Of a stretch of 64,000 bases of DNA, positions 2-54,856 are shown piece after piece (the stretch's first letter is position 1; each line of letters begins with the position of its first letter). Both the position numbers and the translations under genes were made by a program. This DNA is from Candidatus Fermentibacter sp. (GTDB lineage: Bacteria > Fermentibacterota > Fermentibacteria > Fermentibacterales > Fermentibacteraceae): assembly GCA_030373045.1 (NCBI GenBank), contig JAUCPW010000018.1:17078-81077 (forward strand), given 5' to 3'. The notes below the pieces were generated by a model. That model saw only the letters and a list, made by a program, of their open reading frames with translations. It was not told the DNA's origin and made no database searches.

Positions 2-826
2 CTGCACTACGGCGACATGACGGATTCCAGCGCGCTCAACAGGATCCTCGAGAAGTGCGGGCCCGACGAGATCTACAACCTCGCAGCGCAGAGCCACGTG
101 AGGATCTCCTTCGACATGCCGGAGTACACCGGAGACGTCGACGCCCTGGGTGTCGCGAGGCTTCTGGACGCAGTGAGGGAGGTGGGCCTGGCGCGGGAAT
201 GCAGGTTCTACCAGGCCTCCACCAGCGAGATGTTCGGATCGACGCCCCCCCCGCAGAGCGAACTGTCCCCGTTCAGTCCCCGGAGCCCCTACGCCGCCGC
301 CAAGCTGTACGCGCACTGGATGGTGGTGAACGCGAGGGAGGGTTACGGACTGCACGCCTCGAGCGGCATCCTCTTCAACCACGAGTCGCCCAGGCGGGGG
401 GAGAACTTCGTCACCAGGAAGATCGCCCTGGCCGCGGCCAGGATCTCGAAGGGGCTCCAGAAGCGGCTGGTGCTGGGCAACCTGGACGCCGGGCGCGACT
501 GGGGGCATGCCAGGGATTATGTTGAAGCCATGTACCTGATGCTCCGGCAGCCCTCGGGGGACGACTACGTGATCGCCACCGGCAGGATGCACACCGTCAG
601 GGAGTTCGCCGGGCTGGCCTTCGGCCGCCTCGGCCTGGACTACCGGGACTTCGTGGACACCGATCCGTCATACCTGAGACCCACCGAGGTGGACGCCCTG
701 CGCGGCGACCCCTCCAAGGCGGAGAGGGTCCTGGGATGGAAGCCCGCCACGACATTCGAGGATCTGGTGAACGAGATGGTGGACCACGAGGTCGGGAGCC
801 TGGAAGCGGGGAGCGCGGCGAGGTGA
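2..826 (+). CDS. gmd: GDP-mannose 4,6-dehydratase, 5'-truncated at window edge
   Basis: ORF 17..826 continues in frame back to nt 2 (…[33 protein letters not shown]…[47 protein letters not shown]…), the characteristic Gmd C-terminal half; stop TGA 824-826. Confidence 0.85.
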
Positions 827-2040
827 GGATCGCAACCATAGAGGCCTGGAGCGGTGCAGCCGGGGACATGTTCCTCGGAGCGCTGGCAGGGGCCGGCCTG
901 GACATGGCGAGGCTCGAGGCCGGGGTCAGGAAGGTCGTGCCCGAAGGCTGGGCCATGTCCGTGTCCGAGGTCAGGAGGGCCGGACAGGCCGGCACGCGGG
1001 TCTCGATCGGGACCGGCGCTCCGGCAGGCGGTCCCGGCGGGCACAGGCACCTCGCCGAGATACTGGGCATGATCGACAGGGCGGGGCTCTCCGCCCACGC
1101 CTCGACCCTCTGCAGAGATGCTTTCGAGACCCTCGCGGCAGCCGAAGCGAAGGTGCACGGCTGCGCCGTTGCGGACGTGCATTTCCACGAACTCGGCGCG
1201 ATCGACTCGATCGTGGACATCGCGGGCACGATGATCGGCTACGACATGCTGGGCATCACGGAGACCTGGTGCCCCGGGGTCTGCACGGGCTGGGGAACGG
1301 TCAACTGCGCCCACGGCGAACTGCCCGTGCCCGCTCCGGTGACGTCCGTCCTCCTCGAGGGGATACCGGTCGTCTCGGGTGCAGTGAAGGCCGAGATGAC
1401 CACTCCGACGGGCGCCGTCCTGCTCGCCACGCTGGTCGACCACTGGACCCCGCCTCCGCCGGCCATCTGGGACCGCACGGGCCTGGGTGCCGGTGCGTCG
1501 GACCACCCGTCCCCCAACCTGCTCAGGATAAGGCTCGGGACGCCCGGTGTGCCCTGCTGCCCGCGCATGGACGAGGCCGTGGAGCTCGTCACCCTCCTCG
1601 ACGACATGGACCCGAGGCTGTTCCCGAGGCTCCAGGAGGCGGTCATGGCCGCAGGTGCGGTCGACTGCTACGCGGCGCACTGCACCGGCCGCAAGGGAAG
1701 GCCTGCCGTCGAGATCACCGTGGTGTGCAGGGCCGAAGCCCTCGAGTCGTCCATCGACGCTCTCCTCCGAAACTCCACCACGCTGGGAGTGAGGATCAGA
1801 TCAGCCGGATTCCGCACCCTCGACAGGAGCTTCATCGAGGTGTCCACCCCCTGGGGCACAGCGCGCCTGAGGGCCGGAGTCGCTGGGCGGCGCTACGTCA
1901 ACGTCAACCCTGACTTCTCGGACTGCGAGGATCTCGCCAGGAGGGCAGGCCTGCCCGTGAGGGTGGTCCTGGACAGGCTCAAGACGATGGCCTCCGAGCT
2001 GGAGGGCAGAGAAGGCGGCGGCGATGCCGGAGATCCCTGA
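823..2040 (+). CDS. larC: LarC-like nickel-insertion protein (DUF111 family)
   Basis: GTG at 823 overlaps gmd stop (GTGA); N-terminus [27 protein letters not shown] matches the LarC N-terminal GxxGDMxLGAL pattern; internal [16 protein letters not shown] motif typical of LarC/DUF111; 405 aa, full-length fused form. Confidence 0.75.
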
Positions 2041-2704
2041 GGGCTACGACCCCGAGACTCCAGCCTTCGATCTCGCGCGCCGCAGGTTGAAGTCGGGGCT
2101 GCTGTTCGCCCTGGCTCTCGCCGCCTGCGGGGCTCTCGTCGTCTTCCTCTTCGGGCTCCAGCCCCCGATGCAGGGCACCGAACGGTATGCCGCCGTGGGC
2201 GACTTCCCTCCCGACCACGCCTGGTTCAACACCCCCGTTCCCATCAGCCTCTACGACGATCTCAGCGGCCATGTCGTGGTGATGCTCTTCAGCGAGTTCA
2301 GCCGCCTGTCCGATGTCCAGGATCTCTCCCTCTTCGACGACCTGGACGGGATCTATGCTGATCGCCCCGTTGAGATGATCGTGGTGTTCGTGCCTTCGGA
2401 CTCGACCGTCGAGTCATGGAGGAACACGGTCTCCGACTGGGGGATCCGGGTCCCCGTGATCGTGGATTCCGACGGGCTGGTGTCGCAGAGCATGATGGCG
2501 GACAGGTATCCGCTCGTGCAGGTCGTCGACTCCCACGGGCGCGTCGCGGGGCGCTACTACGAATCGTGGACCACGACCGACCTCGAGGGGGTCGTGAACG
2601 ACGTGCTGATGCTCGGGCAGGCGGGGCGCTCCCTGGCCAACGAGCCGTACGAGAACAGCCCGGGCGAGTTCATCCCGCCATCTCTGCGTGACGGCTCGCG
2701 ATGA
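2024..2704 (+). CDS. hypothetical membrane-anchored protein (one N-terminal TM; thioredoxin/redoxin-like fold suspected but no CxxC)
   Basis: ORF 2024..2704; hydrophobic segment LLFALALAACGALVVFLFGL; overlaps larC stop by 17 nt and hydE start by ATGA. Confidence 0.35.
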   Translation: MPEIPEGYDPETPAFDLARRRLKSGLLFALALAACGALVVFLFGLQPPMQGTERYAAVGDFPPDHAWFNTPVPISLYDDLSGHVVVMLFSEFSRLSDVQDLSLFDDLDGIYADRPVEMIVVFVPSDSTVESWRNTVSDWGIRVPVIVDSDGLVSQSMMADRYPLVQVVDSHGRVAGRYYESWTTTDLEGVVNDVLMLGQAGRSLANEPYENSPGEFIPPSLRDGSR

Positions 2705-3852
2705 TGCTGGCGGACGAGAAGCTCGCCGCGATCAGGTCCGGGGATGCCTGCGACCTCTCGAGGCGCGACCTCACGGACATCCTCGGCGCAGGCCCCTCCA
2801 TGGACGAACCCCTCTTCCACGCGGCATCCGCCGTTCTCGAGAGGACGGTCGGACCCGCCGTCTACCTCAGGGGGATAGTGGAGATCTCGAACGCCTGCCA
2901 GAAGAACTGCTTCTACTGCGGGCTCCGGAGGGACAACCCCGGGGTGGCCAGATACAGGATGTCCTCCGAAGAGGTTCTCGAGGCTCTCCAGGAAGGCTTC
3001 CGGGCCGGTCTGAGGTCGTTCCTGCTCCAGTCCGGCGAGATGCTGGGTGACGAGCACATCGAGACCGTCGCACAGGTGCTCTCGGAGTGCGGCAGGCTCT
3101 GGGGCGACTCCGTCAGGATGGTGCTCTCCCTCGGCGAGCTGCCCCGGGCCGTTCTCGACCGCCTGTGGGCCGCGGGGGGGAGGCGCTTCCTCCTTCGGAT
3201 CGAAACATCCGACCGGGAGCTGTACGGCAGGCTCCATCCCCGCGACGGCATCCACCGCTGGAGCGAGAGGGACGCCTGCCTCGGATACCTCTCCGCCTCG
3301 GGATGGCAGACCGGGAGCGGAGTCCTCGTGGGACTCCCCTGGCAGACGGTGGAGCACCTCGCGGGGGATCTCGAGTACCTGCGCGGGATCGACATCGACA
3401 TGTGCGGCATGGGCCCGTGGATAGAACACTCCGGTACGCCCCTCTTCGAGGCCCGGGACTCGGCCCCTCCGGTCAGGGAAAGAGTGTCGCTGACCCTGAG
3501 GATGATCGCTCTTCTGCGCATCATGATGCCGGAGATAAACATATCCGCCACGACCGCCCTCCAGACCCTCGATCCGGATGGTCTGGAGAAGGGGCTCCAG
3601 GCCGGAGCCAACGTCTTCATGCCCAACCTCACTCCGGCCAGGTTCAGGGAGAACTACAACCTCTACGAGGGCAAGGCTCTCGTCAGGGACGACCTGGAGA
3701 CGATCATCAGGTCGGGCAAGGCCAGGTGCGGCTCCGTGAGGAGGCTCCTGGTGCCTGACGATCCCGGGGATCCGCTCCACTACACCAGGAGGCTCGCGGC
3801 CCCCGGCAGAGGCGCAGAAGCCTCCGGAAAGGCGGACGGGGGAGTCCTATGA
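2701..3852 (+). CDS. hydE: radical SAM enzyme of the HydE family ([FeFe]-hydrogenase maturase HydE-like)
   Basis: IVEISNACQKNCFYCGLRRDNPGVARYRMSSEEV (CxxxCxxC followed by GLRRDN, HydE-type rather than BioB/HydG); LSLGELP…RFLLRIETSDRELYGRLHP; C-terminal LTLRMIALLRIMMPEINISATTAL…GANVFMPNLTP pattern of HydE; ATGA overlaps on both sides. Confidence 0.75.
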   Translation: MMLADEKLAAIRSGDACDLSRRDLTDILGAGPSMDEPLFHAASAVLERTVGPAVYLRGIVEISNACQKNCFYCGLRRDNPGVARYRMSSEEVLEALQEGFRAGLRSFLLQSGEMLGDEHIETVAQVLSECGRLWGDSVRMVLSLGELPRAVLDRLWAAGGRRFLLRIETSDRELYGRLHPRDGIHRWSERDACLGYLSASGWQTGSGVLVGLPWQTVEHLAGDLEYLRGIDIDMCGMGPWIEHSGTPLFEARDSAPPVRERVSLTLRMIALLRIMMPEINISATTALQTLDPDGLEKGLQAGANVFMPNLTPARFRENYNLYEGKALVRDDLETIIRSGKARCGSVRRLLVPDDPGDPLHYTRRLAAPGRGAEASGKADGGVL

Positions 3853-4193
3853 TCATCAGGTCTTCTTCCGACGTTAGGCCGCAGCATCTCTCGGACACCG
3901 GCTATTCGAAGGTCGCCAGCAGGCTCCTGGCCGGCACCCGGGACGGCTGCAACAAGATCACGCTCAGGATGCTCACGATCCAGTCCGGCGGGCACATCCC
4001 GAGGGAGGCCGCCAGGGGCGAGAGGGTCATATACGTGCTCTCGGGCGGTGGCGAATACGTCGATGCGGACGGGTTCGCCCACGAGATGAACGCAGGCGAC
4101 ACGGCCGCCGTGCCGGCCTGGGAGGTTTTCCACATGCAGAACAGAAGCGGCGGGGACCTGGTGCTGCTGATCGCTGCGGGGCCGAACCAGTGA
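3849..4193 (+). CDS. cupin-domain protein
   Basis: 114 aa; GERVIYVLSGGGEYVDADGFAHEMNAGDTAAVPAWEVFHMQN beta-sandwich cupin-like pattern; ATGA-coupled to hydE and larB. Confidence 0.45.
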   Translation: MIIRSSSDVRPQHLSDTGYSKVASRLLAGTRDGCNKITLRMLTIQSGGHIPREAARGERVIYVLSGGGEYVDADGFAHEMNAGDTAAVPAWEVFHMQNRSGGDLVLLIAAGPNQ

Positions 4194-5017
4194 CCCCGCG
4201 CGCGAAGCCCGATCCTTTCGAGGAGTACGTCAGGAAGGTGGCCTCGAGCTCCAAACCCCCTGCGGACAGCGAGGAGAAGCTCAGGGACGCCCTCGCCGGA
4301 CCCGTCGAGGCGCCATCGGGAGCTCCGGCCGCGCCGGTTCCCGATGCGCCGGAGCAGGCCGCCACCGCCCCCGCCGGCCCTCCCGCCACCCTCCCCCTGC
4401 CCGAGATCATCATGGGCGGAGGCCTTTCGCCCGTGGAGGTGCTGGCTCTCTTCAAGGCCCAGATCGAGAGGTCGGGCGGAGCGTTCGCGGCAGGGCTGGG
4501 AAGCGATGCCCTCGACCTGCTGAAGAAGGAGTTCCCCGACTGCAGGTACTCGCTGGAATGCATGGCCGTGTCCGCCGGCCCCCCCGCTCCCTCCCCGGCG
4601 GATCCGCGTTTCGTGGCGCTCGTGACGTCGGGCAGGGCCGACATGAAGGCGGCCGCCGAGGCCGAGTTCCTCCTGTCCGAATGCGGCGTGCCCTGTCACA
4701 TGTTCGTCGACTTCGGCTCCACCGGCATCCAGAGGCTGACCTCCTCGATGCAGGAGATAGGCGGAGCGGCGGTGTGCCTCGTGTTCGCGGGCATGGACGG
4801 GGGGCTGCCCTCGATACTCGGAGGTCTCTACGGAGGTCCGGTCGTCGCAGTGCCGACCTCGGGCGGTTCGCGCCCGCCGTTCGGCGGCATCGCCCCCCTG
4901 ATGTCCATGCTGGCCTCGGGCACGCCGGGCATAACCGTGGTCAGCATAGACAACGGCCTCGGAGCCGCTGCCGCTGCTGTCAGGATACTCGGCCTGCGCG
5001 GAGGTGCCGCCTCTTGA
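4190..5017 (+). CDS. larB: LarB-like pyridinium-3,5-biscarboxylic acid mononucleotide synthase (PurE-related)
   Basis: C-terminal half FVALVTSGRADMKAAAEAEFLLSECG…AVCLVFAGMDGGLPSILGGLYGGPVVAVPTSGGSRPPFGGIAPLMSMLASGTPGITVVSIDNGLGAAAAA matches the LarB signature (AGMEGALPSVVAG…PVIAVPTS…VVNIDNGFGAA); Pro/Ala-rich low-complexity insert in N-terminal part. Confidence 0.8.
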   Translation: MTPRAKPDPFEEYVRKVASSSKPPADSEEKLRDALAGPVEAPSGAPAAPVPDAPEQAATAPAGPPATLPLPEIIMGGGLSPVEVLALFKAQIERSGGAFAAGLGSDALDLLKKEFPDCRYSLECMAVSAGPPAPSPADPRFVALVTSGRADMKAAAEAEFLLSECGVPCHMFVDFGSTGIQRLTSSMQEIGGAAVCLVFAGMDGGLPSILGGLYGGPVVAVPTSGGSRPPFGGIAPLMSMLASGTPGITVVSIDNGLGAAAAAVRILGLRGGAAS

Positions 5018-5952
5018 AGTGCCTCGTGACGGGAGGAGCGGGCTTCATAGGCTCCAACCTCGTGCGGGCCCTTGTCGCACGGGGAGACGAGGTGCGGGTG
5101 CTGGACGATCTCTCTACGGGCCGCGCATCCAATCTGGAAGGCGTGGACTGCGAGTTCGTCCGTGGCGACCTCAGGGATGCCGGCGCGGTCGATGCCGCGG
5201 TGGCGGGATGCCTCAGGGTGTTCCATCTCGGAGCCCTCCCCAGCGTGCCCAGGTCGATCGCCGATCCCGTCAGGTCCAACGAGGTGAACGTGCTGGGGAC
5301 CCTGAACGTACTCGAGGCGTCGAGGCGCCGCGGGGTGGGGAGGGTGGTGTTCGCCTCCTCGTCGTCCATCTACGGCGACCAGCCCGTGCCGGTGAAGTCG
5401 GAGGACCTGCCGCCCAGGCCTCTCTCGCCCTATGCCGTCAGCAAGCTCGCGGCCGAGAAGTACTGCCAGGTCTTCCACGGCGTCTACGGCCTCGAGACCG
5501 TCTGCCTGAGGTACTTCAACGTCTTCGGTCCCCGCCAGGATCCCGGCAGCCCCTATGCCGCGGTCGTCCCGATATTCACGAAGAGGATCCTCGACGGGCT
5601 GCCGCCCCTGGTGAACGGCGACGGATGCCAGTCGCGCGACTTCACCTTCGTGGACAACGTGGTGGACGGCAATCTCAGGGCAGCCGAGGCCCGGGGCGCC
5701 GAGGGGCTGGTGATGAACGTCGCCTGCGGAGGCAGCATCCCGGTCAACACGCTCGCCTCCGAGATCGCGAAACTGCTGGGTCGGGAGGACCTCGCGCCCG
5801 TCCACGCCCCGGAGAGGGCGGGGGAGGTTCGCGACAGCAGGGCCGACATAGGCCTCGCCAGGAGGATACTCGGCTACGAGCCCTCGGTGGCGTTCGAGGA
5901 GGGGCTCAGGCGGACGGTCATGTTCATGGCCGGAGGCGGCGCCGGACCCTGA
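5014..5952 (+). CDS. NAD-dependent nucleotide-sugar epimerase/dehydratase (GalE/WbpP-like)
   Basis: TTG 5014 overlaps larB stop (TTGA); (M)[19 protein letters not shown] Rossmann start, SSSSIYGD…PYAVSKLAAE (YxxxK); the track's 4558 start is an upstream artefactual extension overlapping larB. Confidence 0.75.
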   Translation: MKCLVTGGAGFIGSNLVRALVARGDEVRVLDDLSTGRASNLEGVDCEFVRGDLRDAGAVDAAVAGCLRVFHLGALPSVPRSIADPVRSNEVNVLGTLNVLEASRRRGVGRVVFASSSSIYGDQPVPVKSEDLPPRPLSPYAVSKLAAEKYCQVFHGVYGLETVCLRYFNVFGPRQDPGSPYAAVVPIFTKRILDGLPPLVNGDGCQSRDFTFVDNVVDGNLRAAEARGAEGLVMNVACGGSIPVNTLASEIAKLLGREDLAPVHAPERAGEVRDSRADIGLARRILGYEPSVAFEEGLRRTVMFMAGGGAGP

Positions 5953-5954
5953 GG

Positions 5955-8027
5955 CTACCGGCCGGGGCCGAACGCCCCCGGCTGCCCGATGCTGACGGTC
6001 CAGGCCGACTGGCCGTCGGAACCGGTCCCCCATGAGATCCTGGCAGGCCCGGCCGGAGTCCTGGCGCCCACGGAAAGCCCGGCTCCCCAGGATTCCGAGC
6101 CTTCATCGGGTTCGAGCGGCGTCTCCCAGTCCCACGATCCGGCCGCCCGGACCGAGGCGAAGAACGGGCCCCTGAAGTCCCTGCTGAGGTCGAGTCCCAG
6201 GGCGAACCTCTCACGGGCCGGGAGCGAGTTCCATGCGTGCCCCGGAATGGCGTGGGCGACTGTGAGCCTGTCGTACTGCCATTCCTCCACGTCCCCCGAC
6301 GAGAGCCTGGTCCATCCCCAGAGCCTCGCCGAAGCCCTCCTCCCCATCGGCAGCACCCTCGCAAAGTCGATGTCGAGGATCTGGTGCACGTGCCTGAGAG
6401 GGCTCAGGGATATCTCGGCCCTCACCAGCCCTCCCTCCCTCGGGTTCATCGGGTCGTCCCAGGTCTGCGTCATGCCCCTTACGAAGATCCGGCCGAACGA
6501 ACTCCAGCCTGCGCCGGGGGAGCACCTGGCCGTGAGGCCCGTCCCGATCTGCGACAGCCCGAACCAGCTCAGCGATATGCCGTGCGCGAGCTCGGCCGAG
6601 AGCCTGTTCTCGACGCTCGGGTCCGAACCGCTGTCGGACGGGGCCGGGACGACCATCTGCCAGGTCGACAGGGCGAGCTGCTGGAAGAACCTGCTGCGGG
6701 GCGCGTGGTCCGTGCCCGACATCTCGGCGAACGCATATCCGTCGCCTCCGCCGAGGCCGAGCGAGACCCGCCGGCCCGTGTCCAGGAAGTTCCTGGTGCG
6801 GATGCCGAGCCTGCCCTCGAATCCGGTCTCGTTGTGATAGGCCATGCCCAGACCTATCTCCGACGGATCGCGCTCCTCGAGATGCATCGTGAGGCAGGCC
6901 GCCCCGTCGCCCGACCTCGAGATCTCCGGCCGCACCGATCCGAAGAGGCCCGAGGAATACAGCAGCTCGACCTCGTGCCTGAGGCTCGAGGGAGTGAGCG
7001 TGTCGCCCCGCGACACCTCCAGCCAGGGGAAGACGGCCCTCTCCGGGAGCCTCCTGAGCCCGCCGAGCATCACGTCTCCCACCACGGTCCGGCCGCCGGT
7101 CGCCGGGAGACGGCGGAATGGCCTCCCGGTCAGTTCGGGGTAGCTGTCGAGGAGTGCGAGCCCGGCCCTGTAGCCGGCCGCTATCAGGGAATCGGCGTCA
7201 CCGAAGTCCCAGAGGGCGGCCCCGCCCAGGTCTGGTCTCACGGTGTAGTCGGCCCGCCGTTCGTAGATCCCGTTCAGTGTGCCCATCAGAGCCTGCAGGG
7301 TGAGCGTCCCCGCCTCCAGCAGCGTGGGTTTCTCCGGCAGGGGGCCTCTTTCCGAGGAGACGTCGACCGCGATGACGGGCAGGCCCCAGGTGCGCGCCGC
7401 GATGTCGACCGGGAGGTTGTCGACCACGCCTCCGTCGACCAGGAGCATGCCCCCGTCCCTGACCGCGGGAAAGACAGCCGGGAAGGCCATCGAGGAGAGC
7501 ATTGCGGTGGACAGTTGTCCGGAATCGCTGACGATGCGGCTCCGGCTCTCCAGGTCGAAGGAGACGATGCGCACGGGCACGGGCAGGTCGTCGAAGCCGT
7601 ATCCCACACTGAGCTGCGTGAAGGAGGTGAGCGAGACGAGCAGGGATGCCACCCTCTGTGTGGAAACCGCGCCCGGGGGCAGCACCGGCGTCATGCCCCT
7701 GAGGCCGAGCGTGACGACCTCCATCTCGCCCTCGAGCCGCTGCGGCAGGAAGGACATCTCCCGCGAGGGCTCGGCGGAGAAGAGCTCTCCCCAGTCGATG
7801 CTCCGCGCTATGCTGTCGATCTGGGAGGCGGTCCAGCCCGATGCGTAGAGGCCCGCCACGAGACCGCCCATGCTGGTGCCGGCGACCGTCTTGACCGGGA
7901 CTCCCCGCTCCTCGAACGCGAGCAGCACGCCGACATGGGCCAGCCCTCTCGCCCCGCCCCCCGACAGGGCGACCGAGTACCCCTGCACCTGGGAAAGCAC
8001 GGCGGACATGAGCAGCATCCCCAGCAT
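5955..8027 (-). CDS. patatin-like phospholipase fused to C-terminal Omp85-type beta-barrel (PlpD-like, type Vd autotransporter architecture)
   Basis: N-terminal signal peptide then GGGARGLAHVGV (oxyanion), GTSMGG (GxSxG), LLVDGGVVDNLP (DGG catalytic Asp); C-terminal ~300 aa Gly/Trp/Ser-rich alternating pattern typical of an outer-membrane beta-barrel. Confidence 0.65.
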   Translation of the reverse strand: MLGMLLMSAVLSQVQGYSVALSGGGARGLAHVGVLLAFEERGVPVKTVAGTSMGGLVAGLYASGWTASQIDSIARSIDWGELFSAEPSREMSFLPQRLEGEMEVVTLGLRGMTPVLPPGAVSTQRVASLLVSLTSFTQLSVGYGFDDLPVPVRIVSFDLESRSRIVSDSGQLSTAMLSSMAFPAVFPAVRDGGMLLVDGGVVDNLPVDIAARTWGLPVIAVDVSSERGPLPEKPTLLEAGTLTLQALMGTLNGIYERRADYTVRPDLGGAALWDFGDADSLIAAGYRAGLALLDSYPELTGRPFRRLPATGGRTVVGDVMLGGLRRLPERAVFPWLEVSRGDTLTPSSLRHEVELLYSSGLFGSVRPEISRSGDGAACLTMHLEERDPSEIGLGMAYHNETGFEGRLGIRTRNFLDTGRRVSLGLGGGDGYAFAEMSGTDHAPRSRFFQQLALSTWQMVVPAPSDSGSDPSVENRLSAELAHGISLSWFGLSQIGTGLTARCSPGAGWSSFGRIFVRGMTQTWDDPMNPREGGLVRAEISLSPLRHVHQILDIDFARVLPMGRRASARLWGWTRLSSGDVEEWQYDRLTVAHAIPGHAWNSLPARERFALGLDLSRDFRGPFFASVRAAGSWDWETPLEPDEGSESWGAGLSVGARTPAGPARISWGTGSDGQSAWTVSIGQPGAFGPGR

Positions 8028-8125
8028 CGGTCTCCTCCGGAGGCTTTACCCGGCCGGGGCGGTCGGGTATCTTACTTTGGATTCACCTATCATACAGGAT
8101 CGCATACACTCAGAAGGGAGCCCCT

Positions 8126-10333
8126 GTGAAGCTTCTGCTGTCCATGCTGGCAGTCCTGGCTACCTGCTCATATGCCGGACTCACCACCGTCGAGACATCG
8201 GTCGACGGAGTCGTCCTCGACCTCGACACGCCCTCTCCCAGGTTCGTCGAGACCGGGCTGGACGGCGGAGTCTACACCGGCGTCATGGTCGACGGCGCCG
8301 AGAACCTGGCCGAGGCAGGCCTCCCGGCCCTGCCGGTCTTCAGGACCTGGATCATCGCACCCATCGGCGCCGACATCGATGTCTCCCTCTCGGGCGAGAA
8401 CATCAGCACCATGAACATCCCGGGCATCTCGGCCGTCGCCCCCGGCATCCCTTCCGTGCCGAAGGACATGCCGAGGGATTCGTATGATCTCGTGTTCGAT
8501 CCCGCCGTCTATGTACGGGGCGAGGCCTATCCCTCCTCCTGGGTGCGCCTGGTCGACGCCGGGATGATGCGCGGCCGCCGGCTGATCCTCGTCGAGGTCG
8601 CCCCGGTCCGCTGGAACCCGGCCGACCGCTCCGTCGATGTCCTGAACTCCGCCACGATCAGCCTCGGCTTCTCGGGCGGCGACCTGGGCGCCACGTTCTC
8701 CGAGGCCGAGAGGATGGCCGCCTCCGGCTTCGAGCCCCTGCTCTCCTCGATGGCCGTCAACTACGGCACCTTCAACTCCTTCGACGGCACCGACTCCCCG
8801 ATGGGCGGCTACCTGATCATCGCCCACCCCGACTTCTACGAGACCTCCATGGATGACTTCGTCACCTGGAAGTCCATGTGCGGCTATGAGGTGACGCTCG
8901 TCTCCACGGCCACCACCGGCTCCACCGCCGCCGAGATCGAGGCCTACATCCTCGACGCCCTCTCCACCTGGAGCACGCCTCCGCAGTACGTGCTCCTCGT
9001 GGGCGACACCGGCTTCGTCCCCGGCAACACCGCCACCGCCTACAGCGGCGTCACCGATCTCTACTACGTGACGCTCGACGACGGCGGCTGGGTGCCCGAC
9101 GCGTTCATCGGCCGCTTCTCCGTCACCACCACCGGTCAGGCCATCATGATGGCCGACAGGGTGATAGACTACGAGCAGTGGGCCTACTCGGGTTCGGGCG
9201 CCTGGCTGCAGAGCCAGGGCTGGATCGCAAGCAGCGACAACTCCAGCATCTCCGAGGGCACCCACAACTACTGCATCACCAATTATGCCGCGCCGCTGGG
9301 CTTCACTGCCGACAAGCTCTACCCGGCCACCTACGGCTCCACCGCCGCGGACGTGGTCACCGCAGTGAACCAGGGCGAGTCGATGCTGACCTTCTCCGGC
9401 CACGGCTCCCAGACGAGCTGGGGCGACATGTCGTTCGGATCGAGCAACTTCAACCAGCTCACCAACGACAACATGTTCCCGGGCGTCCTGTCGCACGCTT
9501 GCCTGACAGGCGACTACGGCACCGCCACAGCCTGGTGCGAGACCTGGACGAGGACTCCGAGCAAGGGCGGCCTCTGGTTCTGGGGTTCCGTCCCCTCCTC
9601 GTACTGGACCGAGGACGACGTCCAGGAAAAGGGCGAGTATCTCAACTTCCTCGGAAACGGCATCTACTGGCCGATGGGCTTCCTCAACGGCGGCAAGCTC
9701 TCGCTGTATGCCTACCTCAGCGGCGGCGGCCTCACCAAGTACTACTTCGAGGGCTACAACCTGATGGGTGACCCGTCCGTGGAGATGTGGACCTGGCAGA
9801 CCTCGGGCGGCGTGCCCATGACCATGAGCGTCTCGCACCCCGCCTCGATCAGCGGTTCAGGCCCTGTCACCGTCACGGTCTCCGGTGCCTCCGACGACGC
9901 GCTGGTCTGTCTCTACAAGGCCGGCGAGGTCCTCGAGCGCGACTGGACCACCGGTGGCAGCGTGACCCTGTACGTCGGCCCCGCCACCACCGGCACCATG
10001 AACGTCACGGTCCGCAGGCACAACTACAAGCCCTACATGGGCACGATCAGCGTCACCGGCGTCGGCATCGAGGGCGGCGAGCCCGCGGGCCCCTTCACGA
10101 TGAGCTTCGCCAATCCGATGCCCGCGGCCGGCGTCGTGGCCATCACGGGTGAAGGCGCTGCCACGCTCGAGGTGTTCGACCTCACGGGCAGGATCGTGGC
10201 GAGACCCTTCCAGGGCGATGTCTCCGGCACGATGTCCGTGAACGCCACCGAGGGCCTGGCTTCCGGCGTCTACTTCTTCAGGCTGACGGGTGCGGGCGAG
10301 ACGACCTCCCGCGCCGTGACGGTCATCCGCTAG
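8126..10333 (+). CDS. secreted cysteine peptidase family C25 (gingipain-like) with C-terminal T9SS-type sorting domain
   Basis: GTG start, signal peptide LLLSMLAVLATCSYA; C25 core YLIIAHPDFYE…YVLLVGDTGFVPG…MLTFSGHGSQTSWGD (His)…LSHACLTGDYG (Cys); C-terminal ~80 aa …LEVFDLTGRIVARPF…GVYFFRLTGAGETTSRAVTVIR resembling a Por secretion tail. Confidence 0.75.
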   Translation: MKLLLSMLAVLATCSYAGLTTVETSVDGVVLDLDTPSPRFVETGLDGGVYTGVMVDGAENLAEAGLPALPVFRTWIIAPIGADIDVSLSGENISTMNIPGISAVAPGIPSVPKDMPRDSYDLVFDPAVYVRGEAYPSSWVRLVDAGMMRGRRLILVEVAPVRWNPADRSVDVLNSATISLGFSGGDLGATFSEAERMAASGFEPLLSSMAVNYGTFNSFDGTDSPMGGYLIIAHPDFYETSMDDFVTWKSMCGYEVTLVSTATTGSTAAEIEAYILDALSTWSTPPQYVLLVGDTGFVPGNTATAYSGVTDLYYVTLDDGGWVPDAFIGRFSVTTTGQAIMMADRVIDYEQWAYSGSGAWLQSQGWIASSDNSSISEGTHNYCITNYAAPLGFTADKLYPATYGSTAADVVTAVNQGESMLTFSGHGSQTSWGDMSFGSSNFNQLTNDNMFPGVLSHACLTGDYGTATAWCETWTRTPSKGGLWFWGSVPSSYWTEDDVQEKGEYLNFLGNGIYWPMGFLNGGKLSLYAYLSGGGLTKYYFEGYNLMGDPSVEMWTWQTSGGVPMTMSVSHPASISGSGPVTVTVSGASDDALVCLYKAGEVLERDWTTGGSVTLYVGPATTGTMNVTVRRHNYKPYMGTISVTGVGIEGGEPAGPFTMSFANPMPAAGVVAITGEGAATLEVFDLTGRIVARPFQGDVSGTMSVNATEGLASGVYFFRLTGAGETTSRAVTVIR

Positions 10334-10387: not shown

Positions 10388-13300
10388 TTACCGCGGGGAA
10401 GGCCTGAAGTCCCCGACGTGACGAGCGACCCCGGGTGACAGGAAGGCCAGCCACACCGAGACCTCGCGCCCGAGCGCGTCGGCCAGGTCCTGCCCGTAGC
10501 CGGCCTGCCTCGCGATGTATCCCGAAGCCGCGGATGGCACTTCCGCCTCAGTCACGGAGTCCGTCTTGTAGTCCAGTGCGAAGAGCCTCCCGCCCTGTTC
10601 CGCGAGGATGTCGACATAGCTCCGGAGGCAGCCCTGGCGGCCCCGGGTGATGTACGGATACTCCCTGAGGGCGCGGGCCGTCTTCCGGATGTCGAACGGC
10701 AGCTTCATCGCGAAGAGGTTCAGGACCAGTTCGATCACCCTGGCAGGGTCGGCGCCGGAAGTGTCGCGCAGGGGTCTCCTCGCATCCAGCCATGCCTCCG
10801 GCTCCGCCAGGTCGATCTTCTCCAGGATCCTGTGCACGGTGAGCCCCAGCCTGATGGCCGGAGACCCGTCGGAGGCGTCAGGCGCCGGCTCCTCCGGGAC
10901 GACGGCGGACAGAACGGGGAGCGGCCTCTCCGAAGGGACCTGCGCAGGATCGATCCTCCGGACCGCCCTGTGCACCAGACCTCCCGTTCCCGGGGCCTCC
11001 GAGACGTCCAGCAATCCGTTGTCCGCCTCCCAGGCTCCCCGCAGCGCATTCACGAGTATCCCGTCGAAGCCTTCGGGCGCACGAGGCGGATCCTCCCAGG
11101 CGGATCTCCGGACGAAGACCACGAGCCCAGTCCTTGCCCTCGTGAGTGCGACGTACACCAGGCGCCTGGCCTCCGCCGCATCCTGCTGCGCCTCCCTCTC
11201 CCTGAGCTCGTCGAGCAGCGGCGTGCCGAGGTCCGCACCGAAGGAGACGGCTGCCCTGCGGGCCTTCTCGTGGAGCAGGACGGGTCCTCTGGACCTCCTC
11301 GAATCGTGCTTCCCGAGGGGGGGGATGAGCATGACGCCGTCGAACGTTAGCCCCTTCGACTTGTGGATGGTGGTCACCGAGACGGTCCCCGGGGCAGTCA
11401 CGGGGGAAGGCTCCTCCAGTATCCCCTCTCCGGGGCCATCGGCGAGGGCCTCCCTAAGGTCGGCGAGCGAGGCGAAAGCCCCGCCCGCGGCCTGCTCGAT
11501 CAGAAAGCCCAGATTAGAGAGCCTCCGGTCGGGTTCCCATCCCGAGGCGGCGAGTACCGGTGCGATCTCGGTCTCGCAGAGCAGGAGATGGAGGAAGTCG
11601 CCGACCGGCATGCGGGCGGAGGCGCTGCGGAGCCGCGACAGCATCTCGCAGGCCCTGGCCGCCTGCGGTACCCTGCCGGCGAAGCCCTCCGGGAGCGAAG
11701 GCCATCCAGCGAGGCCCGCCGCCACCGCTCTCGTGATCTCACCGTCCTCCACACCGAAGAAGGGAGACCTCAGAGTGTGGATCAGAGCCCTCCCGTCACC
11801 CGGGAACGAAAGGCAGGAGAGCATCTCCCTCAGGTCGACGGTCTCCGGCCTCGCCTTGAATGTCCTCCCCACTGTCGCCGAGTACGGTATGCCGGCCTCC
11901 GACAGGCGTGCGAGAAGTATCCCCGCATGTGTCCCCGCCGTCATGAGGATGGCGGCCCCGCCCCGGGCGGGCTCCCCTTCCGGCCCGCACGCCAGGCTGC
12001 GGGCGCACCATCCGGCGGCCATGTCCACGAGTTCGCCGGGTGTCGGACCCGGATCGTCACCGGTCGCTGCATCGTCGAGAAGGACGACGACCGGTCTGGG
12101 GCCTTCGGGAGCGTCCGGCCGCGGCTCGAAATCCGAGTATCCGCAGTCGAAGGGGGAGGTGCCGCCGAAGATGAACGGCCCGGCCGCGTTGACCAGCGAG
12201 ACGATGGCGCGGCTGCTCCTGAAGCTCACGGTGATCCTCTCCGAGAGAGTGCCCGCCGTGTCGGCCTCGAAGCCCCGGCGCTCCTCGGCGTATAGCTCGA
12301 GATCGGCCTGCCTCCAGGCGTAGATCGACTGCTTCGGGTCGCCGACCACCGTTATCGACCCGCGCCCGTAGCCCCCGGAGCCCGCGAGGATGCTCCTGAA
12401 GATGGCGATCTGCTCTGAACTCGTGTCCTGGTATTCGTCCACGAGGAAATGGACGAACCTGGAGGAGATGGCCCTCCTCAGGTCCTCCGACTTCTCGAGC
12501 GCCCCGCACAGGCGCGAGAGTATCTCGTCGAAGGACAGGTTCGACCGGTCGGATGCCCGGATCGAGCGGAGCCGCTCCGTGAACGGGGGGACGAGGCGCT
12601 CGAACTGCTCCGCCAGCGGCAGCGAGCGGAGGATCACCTTGAACCGCCCGAAGAGGCTCTTCGCCTCGGCCAGGGTCCCGTCCGGCCATGAGGCCTTCCT
12701 GCCGCCCTGGAGATTGATGGCGCCGACGGCCCTGTCGATCGTGCCCGGCGGGGCGTGGCCGTCCAGCACGGGCCGGGCAAGTTCGATGAAGCAGGCGATC
12801 TTCGAGGCCATCGCATCGGTCGGATCGGCCTCACCGGCAAGAGCTTCCAGCCGGGCCAGCGCCGATGACGCGGCGGCACGGGCGCCGGCGCCGTCGCTGC
12901 TCAGAGAGGCGGCATCCCCCGCCCAGGGCCTGGAGGCGAGGGTCATCGCGATGCCCGGCAGGCTGCTGCCGCAGGCGGCGACGAGGTCGGCGCACCCGGC
13001 GAGCCTCGCGGGGTCCTCCAGCAGGTGCTCCTCCCAGAGCCTCGACAGGTCGGCTGAAGTGAAGGCGCACGCAGAGATCTCGAAGGAGGGGTCCGTGTCC
13101 GTGAGGTGCGGGTACTCCCTGAGCATCGAGGATGCGAAGGAGTGGATCGTCGTCACGTAGGCCCCCGGGATCTGCGCCGACAGCCTGCGCTTGAGCTCTC
13201 CTTCGCCGCCTTCGTCGGGCATTGCCGCGATCCTCGACCTGATCCGCCGCCTGAGCTCGGCCGCAGCCGCCTCGCCGAAGGTCAGGACCGCCATACTGTC

Positions 13301-13456
13301 GATGCCCCCGAAATGCCGCGCGAGCCGCATGACCCTGTCGGTCATCAGGAACGTCTTGCCGGTGCCGGCGCTGGCCTCGACGGACACGGACCGCGACACT
13401 TCGGAGACTATCATCTCCCTTGCGACGGCGTCGGCAGGGCGGGGGGGCTCAGGCAT
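10388..13456 (-). CDS. addA: AddA-like ATP-dependent helicase/nuclease (UvrD/REP helicase plus PD-(D/E)XK nuclease)
   Basis: N-terminal Walker A SVEASAGTGKTF, UvrD-type helicase body, C-terminal …LDYKTDSV…YIARQAGYGQDL nuclease motif; longest ORF starts at 13504 but ATG at 13456 (MPEPP…) gives an 8-nt overlap with addB stop; start uncertain. Confidence 0.65.
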   Translation of the reverse strand: MPEPPRPADAVAREMIVSEVSRSVSVEASAGTGKTFLMTDRVMRLARHFGGIDSMAVLTFGEAAAAELRRRIRSRIAAMPDEGGEGELKRRLSAQIPGAYVTTIHSFASSMLREYPHLTDTDPSFEISACAFTSADLSRLWEEHLLEDPARLAGCADLVAACGSSLPGIAMTLASRPWAGDAASLSSDGAGARAAASSALARLEALAGEADPTDAMASKIACFIELARPVLDGHAPPGTIDRAVGAINLQGGRKASWPDGTLAEAKSLFGRFKVILRSLPLAEQFERLVPPFTERLRSIRASDRSNLSFDEILSRLCGALEKSEDLRRAISSRFVHFLVDEYQDTSSEQIAIFRSILAGSGGYGRGSITVVGDPKQSIYAWRQADLELYAEERRGFEADTAGTLSERITVSFRSSRAIVSLVNAAGPFIFGGTSPFDCGYSDFEPRPDAPEGPRPVVVLLDDAATGDDPGPTPGELVDMAAGWCARSLACGPEGEPARGGAAILMTAGTHAGILLARLSEAGIPYSATVGRTFKARPETVDLREMLSCLSFPGDGRALIHTLRSPFFGVEDGEITRAVAAGLAGWPSLPEGFAGRVPQAARACEMLSRLRSASARMPVGDFLHLLLCETEIAPVLAASGWEPDRRLSNLGFLIEQAAGGAFASLADLREALADGPGEGILEEPSPVTAPGTVSVTTIHKSKGLTFDGVMLIPPLGKHDSRRSRGPVLLHEKARRAAVSFGADLGTPLLDELREREAQQDAAEARRLVYVALTRARTGLVVFVRRSAWEDPPRAPEGFDGILVNALRGAWEADNGLLDVSEAPGTGGLVHRAVRRIDPAQVPSERPLPVLSAVVPEEPAPDASDGSPAIRLGLTVHRILEKIDLAEPEAWLDARRPLRDTSGADPARVIELVLNLFAMKLPFDIRKTARALREYPYITRGRQGCLRSYVDILAEQGGRLFALDYKTDSVTEAEVPSAASGYIARQAGYGQDLADALGREVSVWLAFLSPGVARHVGDFRPSPR

Positions 13457-16400
13457 CCTCATCGACGCCCTCCGTACCGGCATCCCAGGAAGGCAGCTCG
13501 CCACCGGGCCCTCTTGTCGCGGCCAGCTTCGGCCCTATCCTCTCGTCCGGCCCCTTCCTGCAGAGCCCGGCCGCCCAGCAGCCCCTGCACGGGGCACCGG
13601 TGAGCGCTCCCGCGGGTGGGAACATGCCGGCACGGATCGAGCGCACCGCCGACTCCGCGCGCGACAGCGAGGCTTCCATCACCGGCCCGAGTTCGTCCCG
13701 CCCGAATGTGGTCTCGAGGGAGGGCTTCGAGGCATACAGCAGGCCGGCCCTGTCCACGGGCGTTCCTAGAGCTTCGAGGATCGCGGCGTAGAGAGGCACC
13801 TGGAGGTATTCGCCCCCGTCGATGCCCTTCCGCACGGCCCGGAGGCCCGGGGTCGCGCTGCCCGTCTTGAGATCGAGGACGACCCTCCCGGCCCCGTTGC
13901 GCAGGATCATGTCGATCCTTCCGGCGAGCTCGATGCCGCCCGCCCCGGTGCGTGCACGGCGCCCCGTCTCGATGGAATCATCCCCGTCGGGCTCCAGCCC
14001 CTCGTCCTCTAGGAAGGCCAGGATGCCTGCGAGCTCTGCCGCGGCCGCCTCCGCGAACCTTCCGGCGAGCACGGGGCTGCCCATCAGCCCTGCGAGATCG
14101 AGCTCCGCACAGGCCTGCGCGACCGCCCCGGAGGCCGGCCTGCCCGGCTCGGCGAGGCAGAGGGAGAGGGCTCTGTGCATGACGTTGCCCCTCGCTAGGG
14201 GGGGAGGCTTCGAGAGGATCGCCGCATCGCACGGTTCGGCCAGGTGCCAGAGCCTCGCGGCCATGTAGCGGAACGGGCAAGCCGCCCAGTCCTGGAGCCT
14301 GGAGGGCGAGAACGCGCCGTCGGCCAGCCCGGGCATCGCGCCCAGGATTCCGTCGCCAGGGCCGAACGGCGATCCGCGGTCGAGCCTGGAGGCCTCGACG
14401 GCGCAGGCCTCGGCGAAGAACGGCCTGTGCAGGGGGAGGGTCCCTCCGAAGGCGTCCCTGGTATCCGCCTGGCCGGCCCGTGAGCCCCCGAAATGGATGG
14501 AGACGGGGTCGGCCGGGAGCGTGGATGCACATCCCGCGAGCATTCCGGCGATCCGCTCCGAAGGCTCCACGAGGGGCTCGATGAACGGCGACCAGGAGAC
14601 CTCGCGGCCGGCGGCGTCCATGGTCATCCTCACCAGCGTGAGGCGCTCGCCAGCGCATTCCAGAACCTGCCTGAAGAGAAGAGCCTGCTCCGTCTCCCGC
14701 AGGGACGACGGAGGAAGCTCGAGGCCCTTCCGCAGAGCATCGGGCAGCCTGGGATCGTTCCTGGCCACCCCCGGCAGGACGTCCTCCTCGAGGCCGAACA
14801 CGATGACGTGGCGGAAGCTCGTGCCCCTGGCCTCCTCCATCTCGAGGAGCTCCACCGATCCCGGGGTGCCCGGCCTCTCCATGAAGACCGTCTCGAGGAT
14901 CACGTCCAGCATCTCCGCGAACCTGTCGAATCCGACGCTCCCGCGGTACACGGGCGCGGCGAGACCGGGGAGCGATCCGACCGCCGCTCCGGCATGGCCG
15001 TCCGGCCCGGTGAGGATCATCGCGGCCCTGCACAGACCTTCGAGCATGACCCCCGGCGGGGCGGTGCCGGGGATCAGTGCGTCACCTTCGAGGAGGGCCT
15101 TCGCGAGCGCGGAAGCCCGTGCGTGGACGGCCCCGTCGAGAGCCGCCATCCTTCCGAGCATCTCCCTGCCCCTTCTGACCCCCGATGCCTGCAATGCGAG
15201 CGCGATCTCGTCGGGCGAGGCCCGGAATGCGTCCGCCACCGCCGCCGAACCGGACACGCGGGTCAGCAGGCCGTGGTGGAAGTCGAGGTTCCTCAGCCTG
15301 GCGATGTCAGAGAGGAGCGAACCCGCGGGCAGGCTTCCGAGCCTGCACTTCCAGGGCCGGGCGACCGGGATCCCCTCCGCCCTGAGGAACGTCTCGACGG
15401 TTTCGAAGGCCTGTCCCTTCCCTACGACCGCGGTCTGCGAAGCGGGGATCCCTGATGCGGACGGACCCGCGAGAGAATCGATCACGGCCCTCGCGACCCC
15501 GGCCGGGCCGGGCGCGTTCACCAGCCTGAATCCCTCCGGGATGATCCTGATGTCGCCCGAAAGGAGGGCATCGGCAAACGTGAGGAACCGGGACGGGGGG
15601 CGGTTCGAGTCGGCGCGCATCCTGTCGCCGGCCCTGCCGTCCAGCAGGAGTCTCGTCGGCCTGCCGATCCCCTTCCAGGCTTCGAGGGCGGACGGGACCG
15701 GGCACATGAAGACCACGCAGGGGAGGGATTCGACCAGGTGCCTCAGCATGCGCCTCTGCAGGGGGTTCAGGTCGAGGAACCCGTAGAGGATGATCGAGCG
15801 GTACCGGGATGGCCGTGACGACAGGGCCGACATGGCGGCCTGGTCGTGAGTGCCGGGGAAGAGGCCCGTCCTGAGCCGCACATACTTCCGGAACGCGATC
15901 CCGACGGCCTCGACCGTGCTCCGTTCAGCCGCGGTGACGGGATCGCCCCCGGATTCGGATACGAAGGCGCTCACGTCGTAGGAGGCGGGATCTATGCCCC
16001 TGTCCAGCAGATCCTTCTCGAAGAATGCGGAAAGGGAGCGGGCGGCATGGGCGACGCCCGAGAGCGCGGAGTAGGGCAGTCCGGCCGGGATGGATCCCAT
16101 CGCATCCATGGCGAGCAGCGTGCGGTCAGCCTCGCCCGGGTCCTCGCAGGAGAAGGGATCGGAAGCGAGCCTGGCGGCGAGCTGGGGGAATCCGGGGAGA
16201 ACCTCCAGCCCCGGCAGGATTCCCTCGCCGGCATCGGCGAGCACCCGGAGGACCCTCCTCTGGAGGGCCGATCCCGCCGGGACGAGGGCTGCGGGGCCGA
16301 GGGCAAGGGCTCTGGAAACCTCGCCGGGAAGGACCGATTCGAGCGCCCTGTAGTGTCCTTCGATCAGTTTGAGCATGTTCGAAGATACCGGGCGACAGGG

Positions 16401-16505
16401 AACCCAGGGAGTCGACAGGCGGGAGGACGCGTTGAGCAGGTCGGGCGAGCAGGCTTCCGATGGCAGGAAACTCGTTGCGCTGAGGCAGAAGATGTCCTCG
16501 GCCAA
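13449..16505 (-). CDS. addB: AddB-like helicase-nuclease subunit (PD-(D/E)XK nuclease with C-terminal Cys cluster)
   Basis: C-terminal …VVLDLKTGSAT…YLQVPLYAAIL… plus CRGCWAAGLC cysteine cluster as in AddB iron-sulfur nuclease domain; alternative start at 16376 (MLKLIEGHY…) would remove the overlap with the divergent gene. Confidence 0.55.
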   Translation of the reverse strand: MAEDIFCLSATSFLPSEACSPDLLNASSRLSTPWVPCRPVSSNMLKLIEGHYRALESVLPGEVSRALALGPAALVPAGSALQRRVLRVLADAGEGILPGLEVLPGFPQLAARLASDPFSCEDPGEADRTLLAMDAMGSIPAGLPYSALSGVAHAARSLSAFFEKDLLDRGIDPASYDVSAFVSESGGDPVTAAERSTVEAVGIAFRKYVRLRTGLFPGTHDQAAMSALSSRPSRYRSIILYGFLDLNPLQRRMLRHLVESLPCVVFMCPVPSALEAWKGIGRPTRLLLDGRAGDRMRADSNRPPSRFLTFADALLSGDIRIIPEGFRLVNAPGPAGVARAVIDSLAGPSASGIPASQTAVVGKGQAFETVETFLRAEGIPVARPWKCRLGSLPAGSLLSDIARLRNLDFHHGLLTRVSGSAAVADAFRASPDEIALALQASGVRRGREMLGRMAALDGAVHARASALAKALLEGDALIPGTAPPGVMLEGLCRAAMILTGPDGHAGAAVGSLPGLAAPVYRGSVGFDRFAEMLDVILETVFMERPGTPGSVELLEMEEARGTSFRHVIVFGLEEDVLPGVARNDPRLPDALRKGLELPPSSLRETEQALLFRQVLECAGERLTLVRMTMDAAGREVSWSPFIEPLVEPSERIAGMLAGCASTLPADPVSIHFGGSRAGQADTRDAFGGTLPLHRPFFAEACAVEASRLDRGSPFGPGDGILGAMPGLADGAFSPSRLQDWAACPFRYMAARLWHLAEPCDAAILSKPPPLARGNVMHRALSLCLAEPGRPASGAVAQACAELDLAGLMGSPVLAGRFAEAAAAELAGILAFLEDEGLEPDGDDSIETGRRARTGAGGIELAGRIDMILRNGAGRVVLDLKTGSATPGLRAVRKGIDGGEYLQVPLYAAILEALGTPVDRAGLLYASKPSLETTFGRDELGPVMEASLSRAESAVRSIRAGMFPPAGALTGAPCRGCWAAGLCRKGPDERIGPKLAATRGPGGELPSWDAGTEGVDEDA

Positions 16506-54810: not shown

Positions 54811-54856
54811 CGGTCCGGGGGCGCGCGCCCCGGACAGGCCGTCCGGAGTTGGACAA

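Follow-up and report, generated by a model that had tools for sequence, protein, structure and literature searches.

Introduction

The PlpD/FplA family of outer-membrane proteins, historically called "type Vd autotransporters" and referred to here as PL-Omp85 proteins, joins a patatin-like phospholipase domain to a POTRA domain and an Omp85-type β-barrel. FplA of Fusobacterium nucleatum is a biochemically proven phospholipase A1, which uses a Ser/Asp dyad and a Gly-Gly-Gly oxyanion hole (PMC5724010). In the present study, we analysed a gene of this family in a stretch of 64,000 nucleotides from the uncultured Candidatus Fermentibacter sp. (assembly GCA_030373045.1, contig JAUCPW010000018.1, positions 17,078 to 81,077 of the forward strand), which is called the window below. 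Candidatus Fermentibacter belongs to the phylum Candidatus Fermentibacterota of the Fibrobacteres-Chlorobi-Bacteroidetes (FCB) group. An earlier reading of the DNA, the original prediction, had described the product as a PlpD-like type Vd autotransporter, that is, a secreted patatin lipase passenger followed by an Omp85 barrel.

The location of the lipase domain in this family is contested. Hanson 2024 studied PlpD of Pseudomonas aeruginosa by protease mapping, intramolecular disulfides to the POTRA domain and lipidomics, found the lipase domain to be homodimeric and exclusively periplasmic, and questioned the label "type Vd secretion" (PMC11116518). In that study, the lipase domain was packed on the POTRA domain, and the Ile-Ser-Phe motif of its dynamic lid (residues 89-126) was paired with barrel strand 1; the POTRA domain was noted to be periplasmic in every Omp85 protein studied, and the deletion of plpD led to higher phospholipid levels, pointing to a role in outer-membrane lipid homeostasis (PMC11116518). 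The data on FplA are mixed. Casasanta 2017 detected FplA on the surface of Escherichia coli; whole cells showed its activity, and proteinase K removed it. For the two F. nucleatum strains examined, FplA could not be detected at the cell surface, and it was not found in the spent medium of the strains tested (PMC5724010). In some Fusobacterium strains, FplA was cleaved by a protease at a charged hinge (PMC5724010).

Domain architecture and family assignment

Homologues were compared in three alignments. The mixed alignment A1 contained 53 full-length homologues, including distant canonical members; A2 contained 45 Fermentibacterota orthologues only, with no canonical member; and A3 consisted of 28 proteins with the Pfam domains Patatin, POTRA and Omp85 or Omp85_2. 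The AlphaFold2 model was built with the 53-sequence alignment. The results indicated that the Fermentibacter protein is, with high confidence, a PL-Omp85 protein of the PlpD/FplA family with a Ser-Asp phospholipase mechanism. From the N-terminus to the C-terminus, a signal-like segment is followed by a patatin fold, a hinge of about 14 residues, one POTRA domain and a 16-stranded Omp85 barrel (Table 1). The PlpD-like architecture that the original prediction had proposed was thus recovered by profiles, hhalign and AlphaFold2/Foldseek. The protein is a sequence-divergent member of a known family and no new kind of system.

The patatin domain was recognized directly. Pfam Patatin matched residues 20-210 at 1.1e-26 (94.7 bits against a cutoff of 27.7), as the original prediction had anticipated, and the best solved relative was the lipase domain of P. 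aeruginosa PlpD (5fqu/5fya), with 5fqu aligned over residues 19-299 at E 1.3e-47. A Foldseek comparison of the patatin domain with PlpD 5fya gave a template modelling (TM) score of 0.85, normalised to the target, at 35% identity.

The C-terminal half was identified by its predicted fold and by family profiles. In the AlphaFold2 model of the whole chain (mean predicted local distance difference test score, pLDDT, 86.7; predicted TM score, pTM, 0.76), the POTRA domain showed a β-α-α-β-β order, with strands at 314-322, 362-371 and 377-385 and helices at 329-335 and 346-358. Exactly 16 barrel strands were counted between residues 389 and 680, with a pLDDT mostly of 85-96. A Foldseek search of this half against the PDB retrieved TamA 4c00 (402 columns, root mean square deviation 3.2 Å, E 3e-17); BamA was retrieved as well, with dozens of chains at an E of about 1e-17. 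The A1 profile aligned with TamA over 322-695 at 5e-16 and with 9ccg over 339-695. Since the signal of A1 might stem from its distant canonical members, the search was made with the A2 profile as well, which matched BamA at 5.5e-18 over POTRA5 and the first barrel strands. The comparison of A2 with A3 by hhalign gave a probability of 100% and an E of 5e-105, with an alignment of 669 columns, out of about 700, that begins at the oxyanion motif and runs through the last strand. In addition, phmmer found matches over the full length (96% coverage) to proteins with Patatin, POTRA and Omp85 or Omp85_2 domains at 1e-55 to 1e-62, and at E<=0.001 Pfam Omp85 matched 25 and POTRA 16 of the 53 aligned homologues. 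The structure 9ccg_A ("POTRA domain-containing protein") was considered as a full-length PL-Omp85 structure and rejected: the alignment showed a multi-POTRA, BamA-like protein with no patatin domain, and no mention of 9ccg_A was found in the literature.

Several observations weighed against the assignment. With the single sequence as query, Pfam POTRA stayed below its threshold (residues 315-385, E 0.16, 13.1 bits against 21.3), as did Pfam Omp85 (residues 617-682, E 0.15, 12 bits against 24), and Omp85_2, the Pfam model of the PlpD-type barrel, gave no match at all. Furthermore, the putative signal peptide has no basic n-region, and the protein ends in GPGR, where an outer-membrane β-signal would usually have an aromatic residue. 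The NCBIfam BamA model TIGR03303 aligned with residues 315-386 at 4e-9, far under its cutoff, and phmmer against the PDB reached BamA at only about 1e-3 (residues 378-440). As the single-sequence scores of Pfam and NCBIfam for POTRA and Omp85 were sub-threshold, the assignment was based on profiles of the family, on hhalign and on the predicted structure, which together established both domains. The Pfam POTRA/Bac_surface_Ag hits that the original prediction had expected were only sub-threshold for the single sequence, which brought its own refuting condition, no POTRA/Omp85 profile hit in the C-terminal half, close to being triggered. The predicted structure agreed with the expectation, as the C-terminal half was modelled as a POTRA domain and a 16-stranded barrel matching TamA and BamA, and not as a soluble domain.

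The closest comparison is with PlpD, which has the same domain order; sequences were compared for the lipase domain only. The differences from the prototypes are modest. Compared with PlpD, the POTRA domain and barrel of the Fermentibacter protein are too divergent for the Pfam thresholds of Omp85, Omp85_2 and POTRA, the protein carries a clade-specific GPGR tail, and its host is a free-living anaerobe and no pathogen. FplA, compared by description, has the same architecture, including a lipase-POTRA hinge that can be cut proteolytically (PMC5724010). It differs in its length of 760 residues and in an N-terminal extension of about 40 residues ahead of the patatin domain. BamA and TamA have the POTRA and 16-strand barrel fold in common with the Fermentibacter protein at 12-13% identity, whereas they have five or three POTRA domains and no N-terminal enzyme domain. 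BamA-type Omp85 proteins carry a VRGF/Y motif in loop L6. In the Fermentibacter protein, L6 reads R587...IPGH (AIPGHAW), with R587, P595 and G596 invariant in all 53 homologues, and in more distant PL-Omp85 relatives it reads FRLGGP..LPGH. Membership among the BamA/TamA insertases was considered and rejected, given the single POTRA domain and AIPGHAW in place of VRG(F/Y). Patatins of the ExoU/VipD/CapV type have the patatin fold and the oxyanion and serine motifs in common (E 2e-7 to 1e-5, residues 15-85); this likeness covers only about 70 residues, and those proteins are soluble effectors of type III or type IV secretion systems or are activated by cyclic nucleotides, with no POTRA domain or barrel.

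The end of the protein is a feature of the clade. The (F/Y)GPGR tail beyond the last strand was invariant in all 45 Fermentibacterota orthologues, whereas PL-Omp85 proteins of other phyla have no such tail and end in GY.F (G-Y-x-F) or G..RR. A GPGR ending was sought in the other open reading frames (ORFs) of the window as a lineage-specific β-signal, and none was found there. The recognition of this barrel by the β-barrel assembly machinery (BAM) may differ from that of the textbook β-signal.

The only names that databases give to this protein and to related ones are "patatin-like phospholipase" and "NTE family protein". Neither extends past the patatin domain, because the POTRA domain and the barrel escape the Pfam thresholds. 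The proper annotation is an outer-membrane PL-Omp85 protein, and little is gained beyond this correction. With this assignment, the family also includes members from Fermentibacterota, and the clade is marked by the GPGR C-terminus and by a hinge that is basic and conserved.

Active site, lid and N-terminus

The catalytic motifs of patatin phospholipases, which had been claimed to follow a signal peptide, were found as GGGARG, GTSMG and DGG, and the same G-G-G-x-R-G, G-T-S-M-G and D-G-G motifs are present in PlpD. We infer from the sequence that Ser52 is the catalytic serine and that Asp198 is the second member of a Ser-Asp dyad. The invariance of the oxyanion residues, of S52 and of D198 across the 53 homologues points to selection as an active Ser-Asp hydrolase.

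The lid lies at the same position as in PlpD. Within it, TLGLRG (residues 106-111) aligned with PlpD KISFRD, which contains the β-signal-like Ile-Ser-Phe; Leu-Gly-Leu takes its place in the Fermentibacter protein, and both are of the form hydrophobic-x-hydrophobic. Few stretches are as well conserved in the clade as the lid: L107, G111, P114 and P117 are invariant in the 45 Fermentibacterota orthologues, and the consensus is TLxL(R/K)G. AlphaFold2 modelled a β-hairpin at residues 105-115, with a lower pLDDT of 68-80.

The first 16 residues form a plausible Sec signal peptide. The segment is hydrophobic, with V and G at positions -3 and -1 and an n-region that contains neither K nor R, and the patatin fold begins at residue 17, directly after it. 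In the orthologues, this site is occupied by canonical signal peptides, for example, MKALPAMLLLLVSSGPLRA. In the model, residues 2-11 formed a helix of low confidence.

Table 1. Positions of the PL-Omp85 gene, of the parts of its product and of the adjoining features in the window (aa, residues of the product).
Feature	Position	Strand	Basis or remark
PL-Omp85 gene (PlpD/FplA family)	5955..8027	-	ATG at 8027, TAG at 5955-5957; 690 codons, 690 aa
Putative Sec signal peptide MLGMLLMSAVLSQVQG, aa 1-16	7980..8027	-	read from sequence; cleavage inferred after VQG
Patatin-like phospholipase domain, aa 17-299	7131..7979	-	Pfam, PlpD crystal chain, Foldseek
GGGARG oxyanion-hole motif, aa 23-28	7944..7961	-	G24, G25, A26, R27, G28 invariant (53 homologues)
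GTSMG nucleophile elbow, aa 50-54	7866..7880	-	S52, G54 invariant; aligns with PlpD GTSMG
Lid segment, aa 83-122 (equivalent to PlpD residues 89-126)	7662..7781	-	alignment to PlpD
DGG, aa 198-200	7428..7436	-	D198, G199, G200 invariant (53 homologues); aligns with PlpD VDGG
Lipase-POTRA hinge, aa 300-313, TGRPFRRLPATGGR	7089..7130	-	pLDDT drop, hinge alignment
Single POTRA domain, aa 314-386	6870..7088	-	model fold, NCBIfam BamA, A2 profile, hhalign
16-stranded Omp85-type β-barrel, aa 387-682	5982..6869	-	model, Foldseek, profiles, hhalign
Loop L6 between strands 11 and 12, aa 579-605	6213..6293	-	strand gap in model
C-terminal tail PGAFGPGR, aa 683-690	5958..5981	-	after last strand
Divergent intergenic region PL-Omp85/C25	8028..8125	.	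98 nt; Shine-Dalgarno, GGGTAAAG, inverted repeat
GGGTAAAG motif	8044-8051	-	conserved upstream of PL-Omp85 start
Gingipain-like C25 cysteine peptidase, 735 aa	8126..10333	+	divergent neighbour, starts 98 nt upstream of PL-Omp85
AddA (UvrD-type helicase, 1038 aa) and AddB (PD-(D/E)XK nuclease, 1018 aa)	10388-16505	-	beyond C25 gene
lar-like cluster	736-5952	+	convergent, ends 2 nt from PL-Omp85 stop codon

Location of the lipase domain

We consider it rather probable that the lipase domain of the Fermentibacter protein is periplasmic. The hinge, at which the pLDDT fell to 62 (residues 301-310), is only about 14 residues long and leads straight into the POTRA domain, and the lid is strongly conserved; both features somewhat favour a periplasmic domain. 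The pTM of 0.76 for the three-domain chain suggests that the lipase domain is fixed relative to the POTRA domain and the barrel, and such an arrangement, if the model is right, would favour the same location. In addition, the syntenic position of the gene is the same throughout a phylum of free-living anaerobes, among orthologues that are 39-98% identical, so that a core envelope function fits better than a virulence factor. This gives mild comparative support for a role of PL-Omp85 proteins in envelope lipid homeostasis over virulence.

The alternative is classical type Vd autotransport, in which the patatin domain would be threaded through the Omp85 barrel and then either displayed or, after a cut in the hinge, set free; outside the cell, this phospholipase would attack foreign membranes or scavenge lipids. 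We regard this as possible, and as the less likely location. It follows the original model of PlpD (Salacha 2010, as summarised in PMC11116518), whose lipase domain has since been found only in the periplasm; Hanson 2024 argued that a folded and dimerised domain of 31 kDa would need an energy source to get through a closed 16-strand barrel (PMC11116518). The surface exposure of FplA on E. coli and its hinge cleavage in some Fusobacterium strains agree with autotransport, and its accessibility to proteinase K and activity on whole E. coli cells weigh against a periplasmic domain; set against these are its absence from the medium and from the surface of two F. nucleatum strains (PMC5724010). The hinge can be argued in both directions: it is basic here (GRPFRRLP) and opens with PEIPR in most orthologues, and its shortness speaks against threading. 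Similarly, genes nearby encode secreted enzymes, while the bacteria of the host lineage live freely by fermentation, and a virulence lipase would have no obvious target there. The "secreted autotransporter passenger" of the original prediction is thus a contested label, which should be dropped or marked as such.

As the family suggests, the protein would be exported by Sec, and its barrel would be inserted with the help of BAM. The patatin domain would act as a Ser-Asp phospholipase A1 on glycerophospholipids through Ser52 and Asp198, by analogy with the described members. It would most likely stay in the periplasm, docked under the POTRA domain and the barrel, with the conserved lid TLxL(R/K)G presumably touching barrel strand 1. 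From there, the lipase may trim phospholipids of the inner leaflet of the outer membrane, a housekeeping task of lipid homeostasis as concluded for PlpD.

Synteny and the C25 peptidase neighbour

The PL-Omp85 gene stands between two groups of genes, and the convergent lar operon and the adjoining secreted C25 protease were both located where they had been predicted. The divergent neighbour is a gingipain-like peptidase, in which Pfam detected Peptidase_C25 (8e-53), Propeptide_C25 and Peptidase_C25_C; it has the gingipain order of propeptide, catalytic domain, Ig-like domain and type A sorting domain of the type IX secretion system (T9SS), the last with 29 bits for TIGR04183 against a cutoff of 23. 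The lar-like cluster encodes a LarC-type Ni-insertion protein and redoxin-like, radical-SAM, cupin, LarB-like AIRC and NAD-epimerase proteins, and no LarE or LarA homologue was found among its scanned ORFs. Since the stop codons of this cluster and of the PL-Omp85 gene lie 2 nt apart, there is no room for an intergenic terminator between them.

We compared the neighbourhood among 12 Fermentibacterota lineages and 76 retrieved PL-Omp85 loci from other phyla. The divergent C25/PL-Omp85 pair was present in 10 of the 12 lineages and in none of the 76 loci. It was seen in the window and its 98%-identical relative (L010), in Candidatus Fermentibacter daniensis (L001) and, at 39-52% PL-Omp85 identity, in L004, L005, L006/L008, L009, L089, L170 and L171; the two lineages with no C25 neighbour were L087 and L088/L007. 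The rest of the block was retained as well. AddA and AddB keep their position relative to the C25 and PL-Omp85 genes across the phylum, and a LarB/cupin/radical-SAM cluster convergent with the PL-Omp85 gene was also found in L170 (52% identity) and partly in L171 (43%) and L001. The idea that the lar-like side is conserved only within the genus was ruled out by L170 and, in part, by L171. In distant loci, the C25 peptidases were 53-55% identical over about 600 residues, compared with 39-46% for the PL-Omp85 proteins and 33-35% for AddA.

The simplest reading of the C25 adjacency is phylum-level synteny of the whole block, because the unrelated AddAB genes and part of the lar-like cluster are conserved in it. 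The "surface/secreted hydrolase neighbourhood" of the original prediction was not supported for this reason, as the adjacency is no evidence of a functional hydrolase island.

A functional C25/PL-Omp85 pair, in which the peptidase would cut at a hinge arginine to release or activate the lipase, or in which both genes would form a co-regulated lipid and protein degradation module under a shared promoter, appears very unlikely to us. The divergent arrangement itself, found in 10 of 12 lineages over 39-98% PL-Omp85 identity and in 0 of 76 loci elsewhere, is what brings it to mind, and this arrangement is accounted for by the conservation of AddA/AddB and part of the LarB/cupin cluster in the same block. 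The two lineages with no C25 neighbour (P0015 and P0009, at L087 and L088) also have no PEIPR arginine in the hinge, but they are two possibly related lineages; the correlation between the hinge arginine and C25 adjacency (8/8 against 0/2 loci) was rejected as evidence, being too small and phylogenetically confounded. The cleavage of the FplA hinge by a protease is documented (PMC5724010), whereas a protease exported by T9SS would not come into contact with a lipase domain in the periplasm. The most specific form, a conserved module in which the T9SS-exported C25 peptidase cuts the arginine of the PEIPR/GRPFRR hinge and so releases or activates the lipase, deserves still slightly less credence. 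If it were true, the module would contain the long-sought "type Vd" processing protease and would link T9SS to PL-Omp85 function, and the C25 pairing is the only lead here that might reward a wider genome survey.

The intergenic region common to the two genes adds one further observation to the case for a pair. In the orthologous intergenic regions of six lineages, the GGGTAAAG motif has the invariant form G.GTAAAG and stands 9-24 nt before the PL-Omp85 start. An inverted repeat of 10 bp spans 8047-8069 of the window, and the motif makes up its 3' arm. F. daniensis has the same outer stem, TACCC/GGGTA, and a changed inner stem that still pairs (GAC/GTC). The motif and the repeat may serve as a promoter element, as an operator or as a hairpin of the leader; neither a sigma-70-like promoter nor an Rfam family was found in or around the PL-Omp85 gene. 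The conservation of GGGTAAAG, like the hinge-arginine correlation, comes from too few independent lineages to carry weight.

Integrity of the gene

The ORF was confirmed at exactly the coordinates predicted for it, as an ATG-to-TAG frame with a Shine-Dalgarno sequence, a G+C content at third codon positions (GC3) typical of its surroundings and full-length orthologues. The Shine-Dalgarno sequence GGAGGAG (8032-8038) lies 4 nt before the ATG, and an in-frame TAA lies 21 nt 5' of it. The G+C content of the window is 66-70% along its whole length, and the GC3 of the gene (0.889) is the same as that of the flanking genes. A plus-strand ORF that overlaps the gene (6237-8129) was rejected as an artefact, because its G+C contents of 0.88, 0.53 and 0.64 at codon positions 1, 2 and 3 mirror the real gene on the minus strand. 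No second copy of the PL-Omp85 gene was found within the window.

By phmmer, more than 60 clusters of full-length orthologues were found at 39-98% identity, and the conservation reaches the last residue. The nearest clusters were 98%, 74% and 71% identical. The 98% cluster comes from a metagenome-assembled genome (MAG) of Fermentibacterota, where the locus lies on a contig of 130 kb, and the 71% cluster is the NCBI "patatin-like phospholipase" of F. daniensis. About 60 further clusters, which are 39-56% identical, belong to MAGs of Fermentibacteria/Aegiribacteria. A metagenome scan gave at least one further orthologue (L090, 86% identity) among the matches listed. The remaining alternative, that the C-terminal half is a soluble β-rich domain or that the ORF is spurious or a pseudogene in a genome rich in G+C, could draw on the sub-threshold single-sequence POTRA and Omp85 scores and on the long spurious ORFs that GC-rich DNA yields, such as 6237-8129, and has practically no probability left, as the 16-strand model, the TamA/BamA matches of Foldseek, the A2 match to BamA and the hhalign result refute the first version and the GC3 together with the full-length orthologues refutes the second.

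Other observations in the window

Two tandem paralogues of about 1260 residues (51028-54810 and 54794-58603, both on the plus strand) matched the model of the T9SS sortase PorU end to end. Against NF033707, they scored 9e-107 and 1.1e-108 over model positions 7-1080 of 1095, with 358-364 bits at a cutoff of 420, and both combine a Peptidase_C25 core with a C-terminus of the FlgD_ig type. The pair suggests that the organism has a T9SS, possibly with duplicated sortases. The ORF of 390 residues that follows (58641-59813) showed no match to PorV and none to a Pfam family, and only a weak NCBIfam match of the TPR type. On the minus strand, a protein of 525 residues (47105-48682) contains a retropepsin-like aspartyl protease domain (Asp_protease_2, 5e-12), and its gene is adjoined by that of an FtsX/MacB-type permease (49723-50961, minus strand).

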